From NCBI GenBank assembly GCA_965219685.1, contig CBDCOH010000002.1:3104001-3168000 (forward strand): a stretch of DNA of 64,000 bases, written 5' to 3'. The stretch's first letter is position 1. Every line of letters starts with the position of its first letter. This DNA comes from Candidatus Spongiisociaceae bacterium. Its GTDB lineage: Bacteria > Actinomycetota > Acidimicrobiia > Spongiisociales > Spongiisociaceae. Shown here piece after piece: positions 2,579-55,558 of the stretch. The position numbers were made by a program, and so were the translations under genes. The notes beneath the pieces are model-generated. The model did no database searches. It was not told the DNA's origin and was given only the letters and a program-made list of their open reading frames with translations.

Positions 2579-5500
2579 TCAGTTGGTGTTGAGGGCTCTG
2601 CTGAGGAAGGTGGCCATCTCCGCTCGGGTGACGGGTTGGTCGGGGCAATAGCGGAGGGGGTCGGTGGCGCAGCCGACGGTGATTCCAGCAGCGGCGAGAG
2701 CGTCGATGTCGGCAGCGTGTGTGTTGTTCTCGGTGTCGGTGAAACCTGCGGCTGTTTCGGCGGGAGGTAGGTTGAACGCTCGGACCAGGAAGCTGGCCAT
2801 CTGAGCTCGGGTGACGGGTTGGTCGGGGCAGTAGCGGAGGGGGTCGGTGGCGCAGCCGATGGTGATGGCTAGGTCGGCGAGTTTTTCGGTGTAGCGGATC
2901 CACCACTGTTGTTGGTTTATGTCGTGGAAGCGGGAGGTGCCTGTTGTTGGGGGGTCGTGATCTAGGGCGCGGATGAGCCATATGGCCATGACCCAGCGTT
3001 TTAGCGGCTGGTGGGGGCAGAACCGGTCTTGGTCGCATTCGGTGTCGATGAAGATGCCGTCTTTGGCTAGGGTCGCGATGGCTGGAGTGTGTGTTCCTTC
3101 GGGGGTGACATCGGCGAAGCTGGTTGTGTGCCCGACGGTGACTACAGTTTCTGCTGCGATCGTGGCTGTTTTGGCTGGTCCGTGTCCGTCGGTGTAGGCA
3201 GCGGCTACGCGTAGGTAGTGGGTTTCGTCGCCGTCGGCGGGGGTGTAGGCGTTTGCCGCGGCGTTTCGGATGGGTGCCCATGTGGTCTGGTCGGACGATT
3301 TCTCCCAGGTCCAGGTGAGGTTGCTTATCCCACCATCGGGATCGGAGAGGGCAGCATCGAGCGGGGTGCCTGTGCGGGGTGTGGGAGCGGAGAGGGTGAT
3401 GTGGCCGCGTTCGTCGGTGTTCGTGACGATGATTGTTACCAGGATGTAGTCGTCTTGTCGGGTGTCGGGTTCACCGTCGGGGTCTTTGCTGTCGTGCACG
3501 CCCACGCCGACGGTGTGCCTGGTCCTGGTTTCGTAGTCCAGAGGCGCTCTGGTTCGGATCTGGCCGGTTGACGAGTCGATTTCGAACATGTCCCGGTCGT
3601 GTCTGACGAGCGTGTAGGTGAGGGGATCGTCGTCGGGATCCGATGCTGTTACCGGCCCGCCGATGTTCACACCGGGCGCAGTGTTCTCGGCTACCGAGCG
3701 GAGGGTTCGGGAGCCTTCATCGAACGCGGGCGAGCCGGCGTCCTCTACGGGACCTCCCCCGCCTCCGCCTCCGCCGCCTCCTCCGTCGTTGCCGGTGGTG
3801 GTGGTGGTAGTAGTAGTAGTAGTGCGTGTCGTGGTGACGGTTATGGTGACATCGGTGCTTACTCTGGCGCCGTGGGGGTCGGTTGCTTCGACCCTAAGCG
3901 TGTAGCGGGGTTGAGTTAGGCGGTCTATGACGGTGTCAGGACCGACACGGATCTGGCCGGTGTGGACATCGATCGTGAACGCCGGGGCGCCTTCTTCGAA
4001 GAGTCGGTAGGTAAGCGCGTCGCCGTCGATGTCGGTGGCCTCCACCGGAGACCCGACTGGTGTGCCCGGGGGCGACCCTTGGGTGATAGAGCGGGTTGTG
4101 AAGGTTCCCGGGAACTTGGGTTGGTCGTTGACCGGGGCGACCGTCACGATCACGTCGGCTTCGTGAGTTAAGCGACCGTCGGAGGCTGCGTAGGTGAAGA
4201 TGTCTCGGCCGTTGAAGTCGTTCCTAGGCGTGTAGGTGACCGTGTTGTCGGGCTGCACGCTGATGCGGCCGTTGATGGGGCCGTCGCGCAGCGAAACGGT
4301 GAGGGGGTCGCCTTCGGGGTCGCTGTCGTTAGCCAGCACCGAGACCGTCACGGGGGTGTCCTCAGCGGTCGTGGCCGTGTCGGGTCGGGGGGCGGGCGCT
4401 TCGTTCACGTTGGTGACCTCGATCGTCACCGAGACAGCGCCGCTGCCGCCTGAGGGGTCGGTTGCGGTAACCGTTGCAGAGTACGACCGTGGCGGGGTCT
4501 CGTAGTCGAACACCGCGTGGGCTGCGACCCGGATCTGGCCTGTGGAGGCGTCGACGTCGAAGAGGTCGTCTACCGTTGCCAGCTCGTAGGTCAATCTGGA
4601 GGAGTCACCGGGGTCGGGGTCGGTGGCCCTGACCACTGCACCGACCGCGGAGGCAGGGGTTGAGTTCTCCGGAACCGAACGCACGACATTGACCGCCCCG
4701 AAGTCCGGGACGCGGTTCGTGCCGCTGGGCGCGGCCCGCGTCGGGTACCGAGCGCGGACGGTGGCGGTGTCGTCGTTCGAACCGGCGCCGTCGCGGTAGG
4801 TGGCTGTGACTCGAAGGTCATGGCCGACATCGGCGGACACCGGTGTGTAGCTGGCGGCTGAGCCGATGTCGGTCCAGGTACCGCTCTGCAGACGCTGCCA
4901 GGACCATGACAACACCACGACCGAACCATCGTCATCAGACACCGAAGCATCCAGGGCGGCACCGACCTGGGGCTGAGACGACGAGAGGATCACTGTCCCA
5001 GGCTCGTCGACGTTGACGACGTTGACGACCAGGTCAGCACCGACCGGTTCGCTGGCACCCGCACGGGCTTCCACTGTGACGTCGTAGACACTGTCACGGT
5101 TGCCGTCGGTGGGACTCTCGAAGTCGGGGGGCCGTAGAAAGGTGAGCACACCGCGGTCGCTGATCTCGAACACGGCACTGTCGGCACCGCTCAGCGACCA
5201 CCTGATCGGGGCTTGCTCGGGATCGGTCGCGGTGAACGCCGCCGCCGCGGTGGTGTCGTTCTCGTTATAGCTCACCACAAACGACCCAGAGCGACTCTCG
5301 ATGGTCGCGTCCTCGTCCATGTCGGTCACCGTAACGGACACCTCATGGCTGGCGGTGGCACCGTCGCGGTCGGAAGCCTCCACCGTGATGACATGAACAT
5401 TGTCCCTGCCAGCATCGGCAGGTCTCTCGAAGTCCGGCGGTGTCCGGAACCGCAACACGCCACCATTGATGCTGAACAGGTCAGCGTCAGCGCCGGAGAG

Positions 5501-12229: not shown

Positions 12230-12890
12230 TGAACCGAACGGCGTGGACTCTACCAAGCCAAACGACCTAGACCCGCCCGCGGCTGGACACACGCCCAAAG
12301 CCGCCAAGAAACTGGCCCTGGGGCGGTTCAGGTCACCGATGTCACCGAGCATCCAACCCGAGAAGGCAAGGGTCTACTGCGCGGTCGTCCTCGACGTGTT
12401 CAGCCGTCGAGTCGTCGGCTGGTCCATCGACCACTCCGCCACCTCGGGCCTGGTCACCTCCGCCCTGGGTATGGCTATCCAAAACCGCCAACCGGACGCT
12501 GAGACGGTGATCCACTCAGACCAAGGCACCCCCTACACCTCCTGGGCGTTCACGGACCGGGCGCAGCAGTCCGGGCTCATTCCCTCGATGGGATCAGTCG
12601 GGGACTGCTTTGACAACGCCTTGATGGAGTCGTTCTGTGCCCGGATGCAGGTCGAACTGTTGGACCGGCAGCGATGGCGCACCCGCATCGAGTTGGCCAA
12701 CGCCATCTTCGAATACCTCGAGATCTTCCACAACCGGCAACGACGCCACACCGCCCTGGGAATGCGAACCCCGATCGAATACGAGAGAATCCACCACGAC
12801 AACAACCTGACCATCGCACCGCTCATCCAAGTGAGCTGACTCCAAGAAACCCGGTCACCATCAAGTCTCCGGCAAACCCGGGGCGGTTCA
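12230..12890 (+). mobile_element. IS3-family remnant (OrfB integrase core) with right IR
   Basis: DVFSRRVVGW, HSDQG, DNALMESF; IR gtctccggcaaacccggggcggttca ends at 12890. Confidence 0.85.
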
Positions 12891-25496: not shown

Positions 25497-26024
25497 TGTA
25501 ACAACCCCGGAAAGGGTTTGTAATCCGTGCTGCCTACGTGTTGAAGTTGGTTCCGCTCTGCTCGGACCCCCGTCTGGCCCACGGGTGGGCAGTCAGCTCG
25601 GCTGCCGTCCCTAGCGACGTTGACCCCCTTTCGTGGACCCGCTTGTCCTTCTCCTCGTAGGCGGGATGGCGGAGGCGGTCATCGGCCTTGTGGATGGCTT
25701 GGCCGGCATCTGGCTGATACCGGTTTTGTTGATGGCGCACCCCCACGACTAGCCGGGTCCCCAGGTGCGGGAGGGGCTTATCTTGGAAGAGGTCAAGGTG
25801 TTCGACTGCGACCGGACGTTGGGCACCACAGCGGAGGAGCTGGCGCGCAGCGTGCAGTTCACCGTCGGTGTGCGAGTGGGCAGAGCCGGGTGTTGCGTAC
25901 CCGGGCCCGGTTCGAGACCTGGGCTGCCACGATCCGAATGGACGTGGATCCCGAACTGTTCGACCAGGAGCAGTTGTGAACCGCCCCGGGTTTGCCGGAG
26001 ACTCCGGGGGAACACTCATACTTA

Positions 26025-26181
26025 AGGGGACCTCGACCGGGGTCCGGTCTGACGCAGCGGGAAACTGGCTGTGGTGCCTTACCCCGGATCTGTCGGCCGG
26101 GCACCGGTCGGGGGGTACGGGCAGCTAGCCCGGAGCGGATGTGACCTCATAGGAGCTTTGGTCGTTTCTTCCCCACACCCT
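26025..26181 (+). ncRNA. Bridge RNA of IS110-C, 5' part (continues at 27561-~27600)
   Basis: Target-like guides cgggaaac (26058-26065) and ccccgga (26082-26088); donor guide cataggagc (26148-26156). Confidence 0.65.
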
Positions 26182-26231
26182 GATGCTTCTATGTTGTGCA
26201 AATCCGGTGTTGGGGGTGGGGAGAGGTTCGG

Positions 26232-27305
26232 TTAGCCGCTGCCGGCGGGGGGTCCTGTATGGGTGTTGTGGTTGGGTGGGTTCTCTAGGAGCCGGTAGAG
26301 GTGGCGGGCGATGTAGCGTTTGAGGCAGCGTCGGGCTTCTCGGGGGGTTTTGCCTTCGGCGGTTCGTTTAGCGATGTAGGCCTGGGTCTTGGGGCAGGTG
26401 CGGGTGCGGGTGATGACGATGGTGTGGAGGGCTTGGTTGAGGGTTCGGTCGCCGTGGCGGTTGAGCCGGTGGCGGCTGTTTTGTCCGGAGGACGCCTCGA
26501 GTGGTGCTACGCCGGCGAGGCGGGCGAAGGCTGCTTCGTTACGGAAGCGGCCCCGGTGTGACCAGGCGACATAGATCTGAGCGGCGGTGATGGGTCCGAC
26601 TCCGGGCTGGTCAACCAGGTGGGGAGCGACTGTTTCGACGAGTTCGGCGATGAGCGCGGTTAGTTCGGCTATCTCGGTGGTGAGAGTCTTGATACGTCGG
26701 GCGACAGATCGCATGGCTGTCTTGGTGGCGGTGTGCTCGGTGAGGGTCCCGCCTCGGAGCCGGAATCTGTGGCACTTGGCGACCAGGCCAGCGGTGGTGA
26801 GGCCCCCGAGTTGGTCCCGCAGACCAACCGGTGCGGTTACTACCAGGGCTTTCAACTCGTTGATCGCCGCCACCCTGGCTGTTTGGGCTCCTCGGCGGGT
26901 GGTTTCCAACACTCGCAGCGCTTCGCGGTTTCCCCGAGCGCGGGGAACTGGCAGCCGACCACGGCCTAGGACCTGGCGGGCGGCCCGCCGTGCGTCGAGG
27001 GCGTCAGTCTTGGCGCCGTCGCGGGTCGGGGTGGGATCCCCGAACTCCACCACCCACTCACCACGGGCAGAAAGGTAGCCGGCCACGCCAGCTCCATAGC
27101 TGCCGGTGCCTTCCACAGACCACACCCGGTCACCTACCCGGGTGTGGGTGCCTGCCCATTCCAGCAGACGGTCGTAACCCACCCGGGTGGCGCCAAACAC
27201 CCCAGATGCCTGCTCTCCGGTGGTGGCAGTGTCCACCACCGACGCGGTGACCCGGTCCCGGTCAGGATCGATCCCGATCACGTGCTCTACCATCGTGGCC
27301 AACAT
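26232..27305 (-). CDS. IS110 transposase (bridge recombinase), intact
   Basis: IGIDPD, VEGTGSYG, AKTDALDA, LAGVAPLEASSG, RLNRHGDR. Confidence 0.95.
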   Translation of the reverse strand: MLATMVEHVIGIDPDRDRVTASVVDTATTGEQASGVFGATRVGYDRLLEWAGTHTRVGDRVWSVEGTGSYGAGVAGYLSARGEWVVEFGDPTPTRDGAKTDALDARRAARQVLGRGRLPVPRARGNREALRVLETTRRGAQTARVAAINELKALVVTAPVGLRDQLGGLTTAGLVAKCHRFRLRGGTLTEHTATKTAMRSVARRIKTLTTEIAELTALIAELVETVAPHLVDQPGVGPITAAQIYVAWSHRGRFRNEAAFARLAGVAPLEASSGQNSRHRLNRHGDRTLNQALHTIVITRTRTCPKTQAYIAKRTAEGKTPREARRCLKRYIARHLYRLLENPPNHNTHTGPPAGSG

Positions 27306-27339
27306 AAGAAGACGCTCTCTTTCTTGTGCGAACTGGGCT

Positions 27340-27545
27340 ATCGCCTCCTAAGGCGCAGACCGTGACGGCAGGACTGTGATGGGTCACACCCCGGACGGTG
27401 GACAAGCTTCTGATCAGGCCAGCAACGGAACGCCCAGGCGGCGCAGCGGCGGTGTCGGACGCATCACGGTAAAGACACAGAGGTCAGAGTGTTCTCGGGT
27501 CACGACCCCGCCGCTGACGCCAATCCTGGCAACCTCAACGAGACC
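27340..27545 (-). ncRNA. Putative bridge RNA of IS110-B
   Basis: Guides at 27487-27495 and 27464-27470 match the flanking target; agaagc and tcacag match its own ends. Confidence 0.7.
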
Positions 27546-27640
27546 CACCCGATACTCACAGAGTGTTTTGTCCACCCGCTTCGGACCGGCGCTGCCGCAC
27601 AAATCCTATCCAACACAAGGAGAGGGGAGACACAGGGAGC

Positions 27641-28869
27641 ATGCCGGAACAAGACCAGGTCGATGTGTATGGAGGGGTTGATACCCATCGGGATATCCAC
27701 GTTGGAGCGGTGCTGGATCACACGGGTCGCCTACTGGGGTCAGAGGAGTTCAGGGCTGATGCGGCGGGATACGCGCAGCTGGAGGAGTGGCTCCGCTCCT
27801 GGGGGCAGCCGGTTCAGGTCGGTGTGGAAGGATGCGGTAGTTACGGCGCCGGCCTGGCTCGTTATCTGACCCGAGCCGACATCGAGGTGGTAGAAGTGAT
27901 GCGTCCCAACCGCCAGCTGCGTCGTCTCAGAGGCTGACACGGTCGACACCGAGGCTGCAGCCAGAGCTGCCCTCAGCGGAGATGCCACCGGGCGACCCAA
28001 AGGCGGGGACGGACCCGTAGAAGGGATAAGAATGCTTCGGATGGCTCGCCGTTCAGCGGTCAAAGCACGCACCCAGGCCGCCAACCAGATCCACGCCCTC
28101 CTCACAACCGCCCCTGAGCAGGTCAAACATCGGCTCCGGGACTCCAGTATCCAAGCGATGGTCAGAATCTGTGTCCGCTGGCGTCCCGGCGAAGCGCAGA
28201 CCACCACCGCGTACGCGAAAAAGGCGCTGCGGCACCTGGCCCGCCGATACCGGACCCTCGACACAGAAATAGCCGAACTCGACACCGACATCCGCCGTCT
28301 CTGCGCCAAGGCCAACCCGGCGCTCCTAGCCGCCTCCGGAGTGGGCCCCCACAGCGCTGCAGCACTCCTAGTCGCCGCCGGCGACAACCCCCAACGCATG
28401 AAATCCGAAGCGGTCCTTCGCGGCACTATGCGCCCTCAGCCCCGTCCAAGCATCATCGGGACAGATAGTTCGGCATCGGCTCAACCGAGGCGGCGACCGC
28501 CAAGCCAACAACGCTCTCTGGCGAATCGCCACCAACCGGATACGCACCGACCCCCGCACCATCGAATACACCCGCAGACGCAAAGCCGAAGGCAAAACCC
28601 GCCGCGAGATCATCCGCTGCCCCAAACGGCACATCGCCCGCGAGATCTACCACCTCCTAACCAAACCATCCCCAACACCCGACGGCAACGACCTCCGCCT
28701 CCAACGCCACCAAACCCGACTAACCCTCACCGACACCGCCGAACACCTCCAGGTCCACCCCACCCTCCTATCACTCCTCGAACGAGGCCTCCACCACAAC
28801 CACCAGCTCGCCACCCGCTACCAGAAATGGCTCACCGACCCGACCACAAAACCGATTTGCAAAACATAG
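27641..28869 (+). pseudogene. IS110-C transposase, frameshifted, with C-terminal XRE-type HTH
   Basis: GGVDTH, GVEGCGSYG, RHRLNRGGDRQAN, then LTLTDTAEHLQVHPTLLSLLERG. Confidence 0.85.
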
Positions 28870-28889
28870 ACACCCCAGGAGCGCAAATG

Positions 28890-30110
28890 TCAAGCTGCGG
28901 CTTGGTCGAGGGCGGTTCGGTGTGCCCATGCGGTGTGTTCGTTGTAGGGGGTTCGGTGTTTGAGGCAGCCGTGGAGGATGCCGACGAGTCGGTTGGCGAG
29001 GGCTCGTAGTGCTTGGTGGTGGAGGTCGTCGGCTGCTCTTCGTTGGTCGTAGAACGCTCGGGCGCCTGGGCTGTTGTTTAGGGAACAGAACGCCCACTGG
29101 TCGAGGGCGTCGTAGAGACGCCGGTTGCGTATGTGGCGGGCGACCACGGCGTGTTTGCGGCCTGACGCCACTGTGACGGGCGACGTGCCGGCGTAGTTTC
29201 TGCGAGACTTGGCGCTGGTGTAGCGTTGGGGGTCGTCCCCGAACTCACCAAGCGCCCGGGCGCCGAGGACATTGCCGAGTCCTGGCTGTGAGAGGTAGAT
29301 ACCGGCGTCCGGGTGCTCCTCAAAGCGGGTTTCCAGGGCTGCTTCGAGTTCTGCGATCTGGCGGTTCAGTTCCGCAACGACGCTCACCAGCGCCCCCACA
29401 GTGGCCCCGTGTGCATCGGCGACCGGGCCGGGTGCGGCGAGCTGGGGGGTGCGGAGGCCTTTCTGGATTCGGCGGGCAACCTTGTCGAGGTTGCGTCTCC
29501 GGCCGGCGGCTTTGAGCGCGGCTCGGATCTGGGGCAGGGTCAGGCGGGCACCCCGGGTGGGGCTGGTTGCCCGGCCGAGTACAGCCAGGGTGTCGCGATG
29601 GGCCAGGTCATCAAAGGTTTCCAGCGCTGCGGGATAGTATCCTCGGAGCGTGTTGCGCATCTGGTTGGTGTGACGCACCCGGGCCCATTTCAGGTTCTGA
29701 TGTGTTCTCGCCAGTGCTTTGATCCCGTCGGCTTCGGGGCTGTCACCGGCCACGCTACGATGGTTGTGACGGTCGGTTCGTACCAGATCGGCTAACACCT
29801 TGGCGTCGCCACGGTCTGACTTAGCTCCTCCCAGGTGATGCCGGTCCCGGTAACGGGACACCGCCTTGGGATTGATCGCATACACCTGATAGCCCGCCCC
29901 GATGAGGGCACCAACCCAGAGGCCACGGTCGGTTTCGATGCCTACCACCACCTCGGCCGGCTCCGATGCGTGCTCGGCGACCATCTCATGCAAGCCGCCA
30001 ATCCCCTTGATCCCTTCCCGGAAACGAGCGAAACCCAGGCGGGCTCCGTAGGCGTCCATCAGATACACATCGTGGTGGCCCTCAGCCCAGTCGTTACCAA
30101 CAAAGATCAT
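28890..30110 (-). CDS. IS110 transposase (IS900/IS116-like), intact
   Basis: VGNDWAEGHHD, GIETDRG, AKSDRGDA, YAGTSPVTVASG. Confidence 0.95.
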   Translation of the reverse strand: MIFVGNDWAEGHHDVYLMDAYGARLGFARFREGIKGIGGLHEMVAEHASEPAEVVVGIETDRGLWVGALIGAGYQVYAINPKAVSRYRDRHHLGGAKSDRGDAKVLADLVRTDRHNHRSVAGDSPEADGIKALARTHQNLKWARVRHTNQMRNTLRGYYPAALETFDDLAHRDTLAVLGRATSPTRGARLTLPQIRAALKAAGRRRNLDKVARRIQKGLRTPQLAAPGPVADAHGATVGALVSVVAELNRQIAELEAALETRFEEHPDAGIYLSQPGLGNVLGARALGEFGDDPQRYTSAKSRRNYAGTSPVTVASGRKHAVVARHIRNRRLYDALDQWAFCSLNNSPGARAFYDQRRAADDLHHQALRALANRLVGILHGCLKHRTPYNEHTAWAHRTALDQAAA

Positions 30111-30149
30111 CCTTCGCCTCCTTCTCCGGGGATCAACTCTCTCCTGAGC

Positions 30150-30335
30150 TGTCGAGAACGCCTGGCGGCGACCTAATGGATCAGTGCTCTATGGCACGCC
30201 ACCCCATGAGCGCTACAAGCGGTCTCACCAACTGGCCGGGGCACGATCTATGTTCAGGAATCAGGTTCCAGGAGCATCCAGTACTCACCGGCCAGCCAGC
30301 TCAACCACCACACCCTCCCAGAAACACCAGAAGAA
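30150..30335 (-). ncRNA. Bridge RNA of IS110-D
   Basis: Sense GGATGCTCCT (30270-30279) and AACATAG (30248-30254) match the target; TGGGGTG (30200-30206) and CCATTAG (30173-30179) match the donor junction. Confidence 0.8.
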
Positions 30336-30374
30336 GTGGTGGACCCCCATTAGGAGCATCCGGGGCGGTTCAGA

Positions 30375-32328
30375 CCCGAGTTTGGCGGGTTGGGGGGCTT
30401 TGTGGGGGTGGTTGGTTCGCTGACCTGGGGTTTTGTGGTGTAGAACACCGTTCCGGTGCGAGAATGTAGGGGCGACATATCGTTGATTAGATGGGCTGTT
30501 AGTGGTATTGTTCTGGCCATGTTCGTAAAGACGACCCGCCGTCGCAGGGGCGACAAGGTTTACGAGTATTTGTCTTTGGTGGAGTCTTTCCGCCAAGGGT
30601 CGAAGGTCGGTCACCGGACTCTTTTGCGGCTGGGGGAGGTGACCGCTTTGCGGGAGTCCGGCCAGCTGGAACGGATCGTGGCCGCGCTGGAGCGTCATCT
30701 ACGCCGCGAACGTGTCGATGTGGGGGCGTTGGAAGCTGAGGGGGCGCCTGGGGTGGGGGCGGTAGCGGCGGTGTGGGCGGTGTGGCAGCGGCTCGGCCTC
30801 GACGAGTGGTTCGCTCAGGTCGGCGCTAGACGGGGCGCGAAGGCCTTGGAGCATGCGGTATTCGCGATGGTGGCCAACCGGTTGGTGGCACCGTGCTCGA
30901 AGCGGCAACTGGTTGAGTGGGCCGGGGCGGATGTGGTCATGCCCGAGGGCTGGTCGGCTCCGTCGATTGATCAGTACTACCGGGCCCTGGACGCGGTCGC
31001 CGCTTCCAAGGACGACACGGAGACACATCTGTATTCGCGGTTGTGCGACCTGACGAACCTGGACCTGCGGCTGGTTTGCTACGACCTCACTTCCACATAT
31101 TTCGAGGGTTCGACCCGCCCGTCTGGGCGTTTCCCATCCCGGGCGTTCGGTTACTCGCGGGACCATCGTGCTGATCGGCCCCAGATAGTGATCGGCCTGC
31201 TGTGCACCTCCGACGGGATCCCGATCGCTCATCGGGTGTTCTCGGGCAACACCGCCGATGTCATCACCCTGGCGGCAGTGTTGAGCGACCTGGCCGAGAG
31301 GTTCGCGGTGGGCCGTATCTGTGTGGTCGCTGACAGGGGCCTGATGTCGGCAGCCAACATCGAAGTGGTCGCCGAAGCCGGGTTCGACCACATATTGGCC
31401 ACGAAACTGCGTCGTGACCGTATCAGCAACCAAGCCCTTGCGGCCATCGACGACGACACCGTCTGGGTCGACATAGACCAGTACCGTTGCCGCGCCGCTG
31501 ATATCAGCCTCGAGGACGGCACCCGGGCGGTTGTGGTCGAGTCCGACGGCCGCGCCCGCCGAGACGCCGCCCGCACAGCCCACATCATCGCCGCGGCGGA
31601 GGCAAAACTGCGGGCGCTGGAGCTGCGCGTCCGCGCCGGCAAGCTGAAGGACCCCGCCAAAATCGGGGCGGCCGCGCAGCGTATCCTCGCCTCCGGCGGC
31701 GCCGGACGGCTCTTCGACATCGAGATCGGAGCTGGACGGTTTCTCTACCACTACAACGAAGACACCCACACATACGAAGAACTCCTCGCCGGTCGCTACG
31801 TGCTAGCCACAAGCCTCACACCCGCCCAGGCCCCCACCGCCCAAGTCGTGGACCACTACCGCCAACTGCAAGCAGTCGAGACCCGCTTCAGGGTCCTCAA
31901 AGACTTCCTGAGGCTCCGCCCCGTCAGGCACTGGACCGAACAACGAGTCCGCGGCCACGTCGCGGTCTGCGTCTACGCCGCCCTAATCGAAACCCTCATC
32001 AACCACGCCCTCGCAGCAGCCGACATCCGCGATCCCGACCTCGGCGACCAGCACCTCACCGCCGCCCGAGCCCTGCGCGACCTCAACCGAATCCGCCGCC
32101 ACCAACTCACCGCCAACCGCCGCCGAATCCAGGTCACCAGCCGGCGCAGCCCCCTGCAAACCCGAATCCTCACCGCCATCGGAGCAGACACCCGCACCTG
32201 GGACAACCCCACCATCACCTAACCCCCTAACCCCACCACCGGCCCCCCACACCGCCCATGTAGTGGAAACACCCCACCGCCAAACCCCCTCTGACCAGGC
32301 AAAACGCAAAACACCCGCCAAATTCGGG
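30375..32328 (+). mobile_element. IS1634-family element copy 2 (same as copy 1, inverted), TSD TCAGA
   Basis: Same IRs and identical translation; tcaga at 30370-30374 and 32329-32333. Confidence 0.93.
30519..32222 (+). CDS. IS1634-family DDE transposase
   Basis: Identical to the 13120-14823 product. Confidence 0.93.
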   Translation: MFVKTTRRRRGDKVYEYLSLVESFRQGSKVGHRTLLRLGEVTALRESGQLERIVAALERHLRRERVDVGALEAEGAPGVGAVAAVWAVWQRLGLDEWFAQVGARRGAKALEHAVFAMVANRLVAPCSKRQLVEWAGADVVMPEGWSAPSIDQYYRALDAVAASKDDTETHLYSRLCDLTNLDLRLVCYDLTSTYFEGSTRPSGRFPSRAFGYSRDHRADRPQIVIGLLCTSDGIPIAHRVFSGNTADVITLAAVLSDLAERFAVGRICVVADRGLMSAANIEVVAEAGFDHILATKLRRDRISNQALAAIDDDTVWVDIDQYRCRAADISLEDGTRAVVVESDGRARRDAARTAHIIAAAEAKLRALELRVRAGKLKDPAKIGAAAQRILASGGAGRLFDIEIGAGRFLYHYNEDTHTYEELLAGRYVLATSLTPAQAPTAQVVDHYRQLQAVETRFRVLKDFLRLRPVRHWTEQRVRGHVAVCVYAALIETLINHALAAADIRDPDLGDQHLTAARALRDLNRIRRHQLTANRRRIQVTSRRSPLQTRILTAIGADTRTWDNPTIT

Positions 32329-54137: not shown

Positions 54138-54167
54138 TGAACCGCCCCGGGTTTGCCGGAGAGTGTT

Positions 54168-55408
<1,241 letters not shown>

Positions 55409-55558
55409 GACTCCATTATCTCCCAACTAATCGAGTCTCCGGAGAAACCGGGGCGGTTCACATACCGCGGACCCCAACCCGGGGATTGAGAATAGGTCGC
55501 AACCCGCTCCTGCGGCCACCCCGCTCCAACCAAGACTGCACCTGTTGGGCTACTTGAG

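Follow-up and report, generated by a model that had tools for sequence, protein, structure and literature searches.

How does one RNA-guided transposable element come to lie inside the guide RNA gene of another? The question is raised by a 64,000-nucleotide stretch of the genome of a Candidatus Spongiisociaceae bacterium (G000:C2:3104001-3168000, where C2 is contig CBDCOH010000002.1), referred to here as the window, in which three insertion sequences (ISs) of the IS110 family are nested at positions 26014-30372. The host of the nest, IS110-C, is interrupted by IS110-B in its bridge RNA gene and by IS110-A in its right end (hereafter C, B and A; coordinates are collected in Table 1). We propose that B is a bridge-RNA-guided IS, recently or still active, whose target loop is programmed for the DNA encoding the right donor guide (RDG) of C-family elements, and we give this reading a probability of about 0.88.

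The boundaries of B can be read from the junctions, which run ccccacaccct-GA-tgcttctatg at 26182-26183 and gatactcaca-GA-gtgttttgtcc at 27561-27562. An earlier note on this stretch of DNA had proposed that excision of 26182-27560 rejoins caccct-GA-gtgttttg, and exactly this arrangement is present in all three uninterrupted C copies of the genome (C2:215889-217378, C2:3020683-3022177 and C2:4231557-4233049; 95-96.5% identity to the C of the window), which read caccctgagtgttttg with a single GA at the place of insertion. A second B copy, at C2:3051032-3052411, differs from the first by four substitutions and one indel and has the same ends. The TC core (GA on the forward strand) stands at both junctions of both B copies and once in each of the three empty C sites, with no other duplication. 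The insertion splits the C RDG between T and GAGTGT; the point of entry is on the 3' side of the C donor loop, immediately 5' of its conserved closing stem.

The assignment of this sequence as the C RDG depends on where C itself begins. A paralogous empty site at 55437-55459 of the window, corresponding to the C copy at C2:3020683-3022177, sets the C left end at ACTCATAC, which begins at 26014 and is preceded by an AC core (26012-26013). With this left end, TGAGTGTTT gives a 9-nt match as the reverse complement of AAACACTCA, a segment that comprises flank, AC core and left end, and it is located 24 nt downstream of the left donor guide (LDG) CATAGGAGC. The LDG in turn equals the right end, AAAACATAGGAGCA-TC, in three of three uninterrupted copies, and in an alignment of the C family the left target guide (LTG) and the flank covary. 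The earlier note had described the restored RDG as TGAGTG, the reverse complement of a C left end CACTCA; the RDG is upheld, while its extent is revised (TGAGTGT against ACACTCA) and CACTCA is not the left end but the C of the core followed by ACTCA, the left end proper starting from 26014. A different RDG candidate, TTCCCC (26169-26174), which would imply a TC core and cggggaaac as the left end, was ruled out by the empty site at 55437-55459. The sense, order and spacing of the C guides follow the rule published for IS110 elements, in which the 5' guide of a loop (8-9 nt) reads as the top strand, the 3' guide (4-7 nt) as its reverse complement, and both include the core (as given in PMC11208160). 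The proposal that B splits the guide RNA of another IS110 element therefore stands, with the insertion lying in the RDG itself.

That B and C both belong to the IS110 family, as the note had also held, is evident from their proteins. The B transposase contains PF01548 (E 1.1e-11, residues 10-155) and PF02371 (E 6.2e-19, residues 232-311), and matches the solved transposases ISCro4 (9t56, 2.1e-11) and IS621 (8wt6, 2e-9). For C, PF01548 is found on the broken N-terminal piece of the transposase, and an intact 410-aa protein is encoded by the copy at C2:3020683-3022177; B and C proteins share 43% identity over 340 residues. The non-coding DNA of B is made up of 255 nt from the left end (27560) to the start codon (27305) and only 48 nt past the stop. 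The IS110 and IS1111 groups are described as having their long non-coding region upstream and downstream of the transposase gene, respectively (in the relevant part of PMC11187229). B does not fall in the IS1111 group, since its guide region is upstream of the transposase gene (subterminal repeats were not searched for separately), and it is an ordinary IS110-group member by every feature tested.

The guides of B account for its position in C. Guides were sought by script in the left end of each element under the published rule, and matches were counted over both guides including the core, giving 16 positions; 2000 dinucleotide shuffles of the 255-nt B left end served as controls. The LTG and right target guide (RTG) that had been reported for B were found at the same places, on the minus strand, and predict a target of AGAACAC-TC-ACGGT. 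The window site, AAAACAC-TC-AGGGT, matches the guides at 14 of 16 positions, a score reached by 1 of the 2000 shuffles, and over the 14-mer we obtain the same count, 12 of 14, as was given before. A survey of the flanks of B finds the second copy at the homologous position of a different C-like element (host D, 72% identity to C), where the site AGAACAC-TC-AAGGT matches at 15 of 16 positions (13 of the 14-mer), a score reached by none of the shuffles. Guide order and spacing are alike in B, C and A, with gaps between LTG and RTG of 16, 16 and 15 nt and between LDG and RDG of 26, 24 and 20 nt, respectively; all three also share an LDG pattern of six matches, a mismatch at left donor (LD) position 7 and a match at the first core base.

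In the consensus fold of seven left ends of the B family there are two arms, each having a short distal hairpin surrounded by an internal loop, and the guides are located in the loops. In the corresponding alignment the LTG and RTG columns vary, in contrast to the conserved stems and donor guides. Compensatory changes are present in 4 of 57 pairs and most stem pairs are invariant, so covariation lends the fold thin support, and it is mainly conservation and energy that argue for it. No bridge-RNA family was returned when 25500-31000 was scanned against Rfam at E<=1; the only hits were Ms_AS-4 in the A gene and a chance match to a long non-coding RNA.

The distribution of the predicted target bears on the possibility that the nesting is incidental, in other words that the evolved target of B is elsewhere and that copies in C-like elements persist because they are harmless in dead IS DNA. 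The surroundings are compatible with such an account: C2:3.02-3.16 Mb is packed with IS110 copies, both hosts have decayed (by frameshifts in the C of the window and by truncation in D), and copies of B or B-like elements also occur in sites that are not C-like (contig X5 and locus L011, considered below). However, the best matches to the predicted target are found chiefly in C-like elements. This genome has no perfect copy of the 14-mer, 4 sites with one mismatch and 14 with two, against 0, 0 and 6 for the reversed pattern; 20 permuted patterns gave a mean of 0.6 sites (maximum 3) at one mismatch or fewer. All four one-mismatch sites lie within C-like non-coding RNAs (ncRNAs), in the context cggcggacAGAACACTCAnnGTgg, and the three uninterrupted C copies account for three of the 14 two-mismatch sites. 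Across 301 genomes of the order there are nine perfect matches, in five genomes, compared with one for the reversed control. C-like ncRNAs hold six of the nine, four of them in G012, from the same genus, and two in G584; the other three are in unrelated DNA. G012 has no B DNA in a scan of 29 genomes of the family. The suggestion that the perfect 14-mer would be found in another IS110 ncRNA thus fails for this genome and holds in its relatives, and the outcome that the earlier note had named as contrary, a non-IS repeat as the perfect target with a lone off-target event at this site, is not what the four one-mismatch sites and the perfect sites of the relatives indicate. Judged by sequence, the perfect target is a predicted bridge RNA gene of another IS110 element, not a host repeat. 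In addition, B has the same position and orientation in every C-like host, and its LTG covaries with the host RDG in a related locus (L006), which together with the counts makes incidental nesting improbable.

The covariation is seen when B-like elements of other genomes are compared. B DNA is present in 4 of the 29 genomes of the family, this genome included. In G007 the B right end at the start of a contig is followed by TC-AAGGTGCGG and a reversed C-like ncRNA; in G022 a remnant of the B left end is preceded by ggacaAGACAC-TC and the start of a C-like gene; and a metagenome contig from another study (run X6) spans a B/C-like junction. More distantly, ten loci from Acidimicrobiia and related metagenome-assembled genomes (MAGs) encode B-like proteins of 57-80% identity. 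One of these, MAG locus L006, carries its B-like element at the homologous place of a C-like ncRNA. The host left end there reads CC-ACTCA, the host RDG TGAGTGG and the B-like LTG AGACCACTC, which matches the left target (LT) plus core at 9 of 9 positions; the counterparts in this genome are AC-ACTCA, TGAGTGT and AGAACACTC, a coordinated change at three places. Retargeted relatives fit their own flanks, on the LT or right target (RT) side or both: L010 at LT 7/7 and RT 5/5, L008 and L007 at RT 5/5, and G394 at LT 7/7. The covariation is missed in L015 (LT 5/7) and L014 (RT 0-1/5). A class-wide search of 401 genomes with the B left end gave one informative relative, G394; the other matches were to the conserved donor-loop scaffold only (query positions 135-197).

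Other arrangements were also observed among B-like elements. A sub-lineage with the LTG CAATTTGAC (L017, which is G394, together with L008 and L014) lies immediately behind the C-terminal end of another IS110-type transposase gene in G394, or behind a shared repeated flank in L008 and L014, and nesting of IS110 elements in one another may be common in this clade. In L009, near locus position 3491, the B-like element ends at about base 1246 of 1377 and abuts a reversed, uninterrupted C-like ncRNA (CTCAAAC/ACTCATGGTGG), which suggests a rearrangement involving both types of element.

The same comparisons help to decide whether B inserted itself or was taken in by C. In the latter case the C recombinase and its bridge RNA would have recognized their own RDG-coding DNA, which resembles the right-donor half-site of C on the opposite strand, and captured a B circle by half-match recombination. 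A recent preprint (10.64898/2026.08.14.744561) proposes such capture for insertions within expanded IS110 loci and reports internal boundaries enriched for one-sided matches to the LD or right donor (RD) sequence of the housing element, and half-match recombination is reported in another (10.64898/2026.08.31.748434); moreover, the boundary of B necessarily matches the C RD, in inverted orientation. Nevertheless, the insert ends exactly at the ends of B and with the TC core of B, the target loop of B fits the site at 14-15 of 16 positions, the C target guides (GGGAAAC and CCCCGGA) do not match the junction of the B right and left ends (RE-LE), and the LTGs of B-like elements change with the site in orthologues. 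We therefore consider capture by C very unlikely.

A mis-joining of repeats during assembly can practically be dismissed as the source of the nest. The assembly, of two contigs, has an estimated contamination of 5.9% and contains many similar IS copies; however, the Logan contigs of X2, a run probably from the same sample and thus not independent, include a single piece from 26154 to 27567 and bridge 27538-27590, the X6 contig of another study bridges the B/C junction, and junctions of the same type occur in G007, G022 and L006. A skip from 26181 to 27561 in run X2 is no evidence for an empty allele, as other C copies give the same skip.

Several observations weigh against the view that B is an active element programmed for C-family RDG-coding DNA. 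The 14-mer at the window site is matched at only 12 of 14 positions, and there is no direct sign of B activity, the sequencing runs examined being assembled contigs. Two sites identical to that of the second copy (C2:3057370 and C2:1191082) are empty, as are the other three C copies. Host D has the RDG TGAGTGT, yet CC instead of AC before ACTCA. Among the relatives, the left flank of L009 matches at only 3 of 7 positions, with its 3' end rearranged, and L011, whose LTG is the same as that of L006, is in a site that is not C-like (LT 6/7, RT 4/5). The X5 contig carries a 98%-identical B, again in a non-C-like site, where LT plus core match at 9/9 and RT at 2/5; this insertion fits the half-match, off-target insertion described in preprint 10.64898/2026.08.31.748434. 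Finally, some of the junctions in G007, G022 and X6 may go back to a shared event, though their host flanks differ.

We propose the following course of events for B. Its target loop (LTG AGAACACTC, RTG ACCGTGA, core TC) would specify 14 bp on the antisense strand of C-family RDG-coding DNA. The B recombinase, holding the circular RE-LE junction by means of the donor loop (LDG AGAAGC, RDG TCACAG), would then recombine at the TC core, and this recombination would place 1377 bp, antisense, between T and GAGTGT of the C RDG. The B ncRNA is presumably expressed and used. The insertion probably inactivates the bridge RNA that this C copy encodes in cis, because the RDG and the transposase gene are now cut off from the promoter, target loop and LDG. 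With B in the bridge RNA gene, A in the right end and frameshifts in the transposase gene, this copy of C appears to be dead three times over. B is likely to favor the site because it exists in many copies, can be broken without harm to the cell and is conserved, since the RDG must stay complementary to the left end of C itself. The gain to B could lie in disabling a competitor, in riding on C or only in a safe landing pad.

The second intruder in C, element A, provides a parallel. Its donor guides (LDG TGGGGTG, RDG CCATTAG) fit its own ends, and its target guides predict GGATGCTC-CT-ATGTT, which is the reverse complement of the C right end, with 0 mismatches, and is the site that A occupies. 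The A protein is only 24-27% identical to those of B or C, over the C-terminal part. The target guide of A also fits the LDG-coding DNA of C, because the C LDG has the same sequence as the C right end; an A-like copy of 83% identity (C2:3082039-3083517) is found in the LDG-coding DNA of another C-like element (aaagCTC-CT-aatggggg), and two C-like elements of G012 (L034 and L035) have an A-like insertion in their LDG-coding DNA.

It is possible, though a little short of an even chance in our estimation, that the B lineage and, independently, the A lineage are specialized hyperparasites of C-family IS110 elements, whose target loops track the self-recognition code of C. In such a relationship B would aim at RDG-coding DNA and A at LD or LDG sequence, and the guide and end sequences of C would be evolutionarily trapped targets, because they can be changed only by paired changes of guide and end. 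If hyperparasitism of this kind is real, each hit would destroy the cis bridge RNA or a donor end of the host, and the parasite would gain a landing pad that is multi-copy, mobile and host-neutral. As a corollary, the RDG of most C-like bridge RNAs contains a stretch, GAGUGUUCU, to which the B LTG (AGAACACUC) is complementary throughout, and the B and C bridge RNAs could therefore also pair with each other in trans.

C is itself a targeted inserter. Its target is a 22-23-nt unit, CTCCGGnnAAnCCGGGGCGGTTC, of which 12 unoccupied copies exist in the genome, and an IS3-family element of about 1.32 kb, which encodes OrfA (HTH_Tnp_1) and OrfB (rve), has this unit as its terminal inverted repeat. The unit or the element is found in the window at 54138-55460, 55437-55459 and 12867-12889, and elsewhere at G000:C2:1235606-1236928 (L026). 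The window thus presents three targeting tiers: an IS3-family inverted repeat is targeted by C, and C by A and B. The cores of C are unlike at its two junctions in all copies seen, with AC at the left (26012-26013) and in the empty units and TC at the right (30359-30360); its LTG ends in AC, whereas its RTG ends in GA, which pairs with TC. Copies of B and of C-like and A-like elements are mostly clustered in about 140 kb at C2:3.02-3.16 Mb, an IS-dense region that includes the window.

Consideration of the systems already described places B among known IS110 elements by mechanism. Like IS621 and the IS110 group, as presented in the sections of Durrant et al. 2024 (PMC11208160) used here, B has a recombinase with DEDD and Tnp parts, an ncRNA in the left end upstream of the gene with two internal loops, a 9-nt 5' guide and a 7-nt 3' guide including the core, and a 2-nt core at both junctions. 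It differs from these in having a TC core, compared with CT in the IS621 analyses, and in targeting the guide-coding DNA of another IS110 element, compared with a host repeat of the repetitive extragenic palindromic (REP) type; the phmmer match between the B protein and IS621 (E 2e-9) covers residues 229-342 only. IS4321/IS5075 and the attC-targeting IS1111 elements, according to the portion of PMC11187229 consulted, resemble B as DEDD-transposase ISs with an RNA-encoded specificity for a conserved sequence of another mobile element. They have a guide RNA downstream of the transposase gene, subterminal inverted repeats and a transposon end or attC as victim, whereas B hits a guide RNA gene within its own family; C, which targets the inverted repeat of an IS3-family element, is the closer analogue of IS4321/IS5075. 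In the expanded IS110 loci of 10.64898/2026.08.14.744561, inserted DNA is likewise found within an IS110, its boundary matching the donor sequence of the housing element. Unlike those inserts, B is a complete autonomous IS110 of another lineage whose own target loop explains the site, and its boundary matches the host RD because the site encodes the host RDG. This offers an alternative reading of the enrichment for donor-like sequence at insertion boundaries within IS110 loci.

The mechanism is thus that of an ordinary IS110 element, and it is the choice of target that appears to be new. In the titles, abstracts and selected passages of the literature covered, we found no IS110 element in the bridge RNA gene of another, although supplementary target tables may bear on this, and within the same scope no description of host end, host guide and parasite guide changing together where one IS110 inserts into another. 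The locus is a natural example of a bridge RNA whose programmable loop is directed at DNA encoding the guide of a different bridge RNA, with a second lineage, A, aimed at the donor end of the same victim. It also supplies natural guide/target pairs with known tolerated mismatches (here RT position 2). If the pattern is general, competition or parasitism among RNA-guided transposons would act through their self-recognition sequences; the gain is in natural history and evolution rather than in a new machine.

Table 1. Features of the three nested IS110-family elements, in window coordinates.
Feature	Position	Strand	Sequence	Remarks
IS110-C, left part	26014-26181	+		Left end and 5' portion of bridge RNA gene; guides fit C flanks and ends; C-family alignment
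C LTG	26059-26065	+	GGGAAAC	Matches C flank
C RTG	26082-26088	+	CCCCGGA	Matches C flank
C LDG	26148-26156	+	CATAGGAGC	Same as C right end
C RDG	26181 (T) and 27561-27568	+	TGAGTGTTT	Remainder after T is GAGTGTTT (27561-27568)
Core, copy 1	26182-26183		GA	TC on B strand; at B right-end junction
IS110-B	26184-27560	-		1377 bp; right end ...CATAGAAGCA at 26184; left end TGTGAGTATC... at 27560
B transposase	26232-27305	-		357 aa, DEDD, intact in both copies
B bridge RNA gene	27346-27560	-		Left-end ncRNA
B RDG	27374-27379	-	TCACAG	
B LDG	27406-27411	-	AGAAGC	
B RTG	27464-27470	-	ACCGTGA	
B LTG	27487-27495	-	AGAACACTC	
Core, copy 2	27561-27562		GA	Also part of C RDG
IS110-C, resumed	27561-27641	+		RDG remainder, closing stem GTCC...CCGC, leader to ATG at 27642
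IS110-C transposase gene	27642-28869	+		Broken: open reading frame pieces 27563-27937 and 28032-29009; stop TAG 28867-28869 within right end
IS110-A	28870-30351	-		In C right end; AG (= CT) cores at 28868-28869 and 30352-30353
A transposase	28890-30110	-		406 aa, intact, PF01548 and PF02371
A RTG	30248-30254		AACATAG	
A LTG	30270-30279		GGATGCTCCT	
C right-end remainder, core and right target	30354-30372	+		GAGCA, TC core (30359-30360), right target CGGGGCGGTTCA

The first nine bases of the B left end, TGTGAGTAT (27552-27560, minus strand), are the plain, not the reverse, complement of the C core and left end ACACTCATA (26012-26020), a likeness that may be a coincidence. Within the A transposase gene, and antisense to it, the Rfam family Ms_AS-4, an Actinobacteria small RNA, matches 29208-29289 on the plus strand with 80.7 bits (gathering threshold 50); this family may represent a conserved stretch of IS110-type transposase genes.

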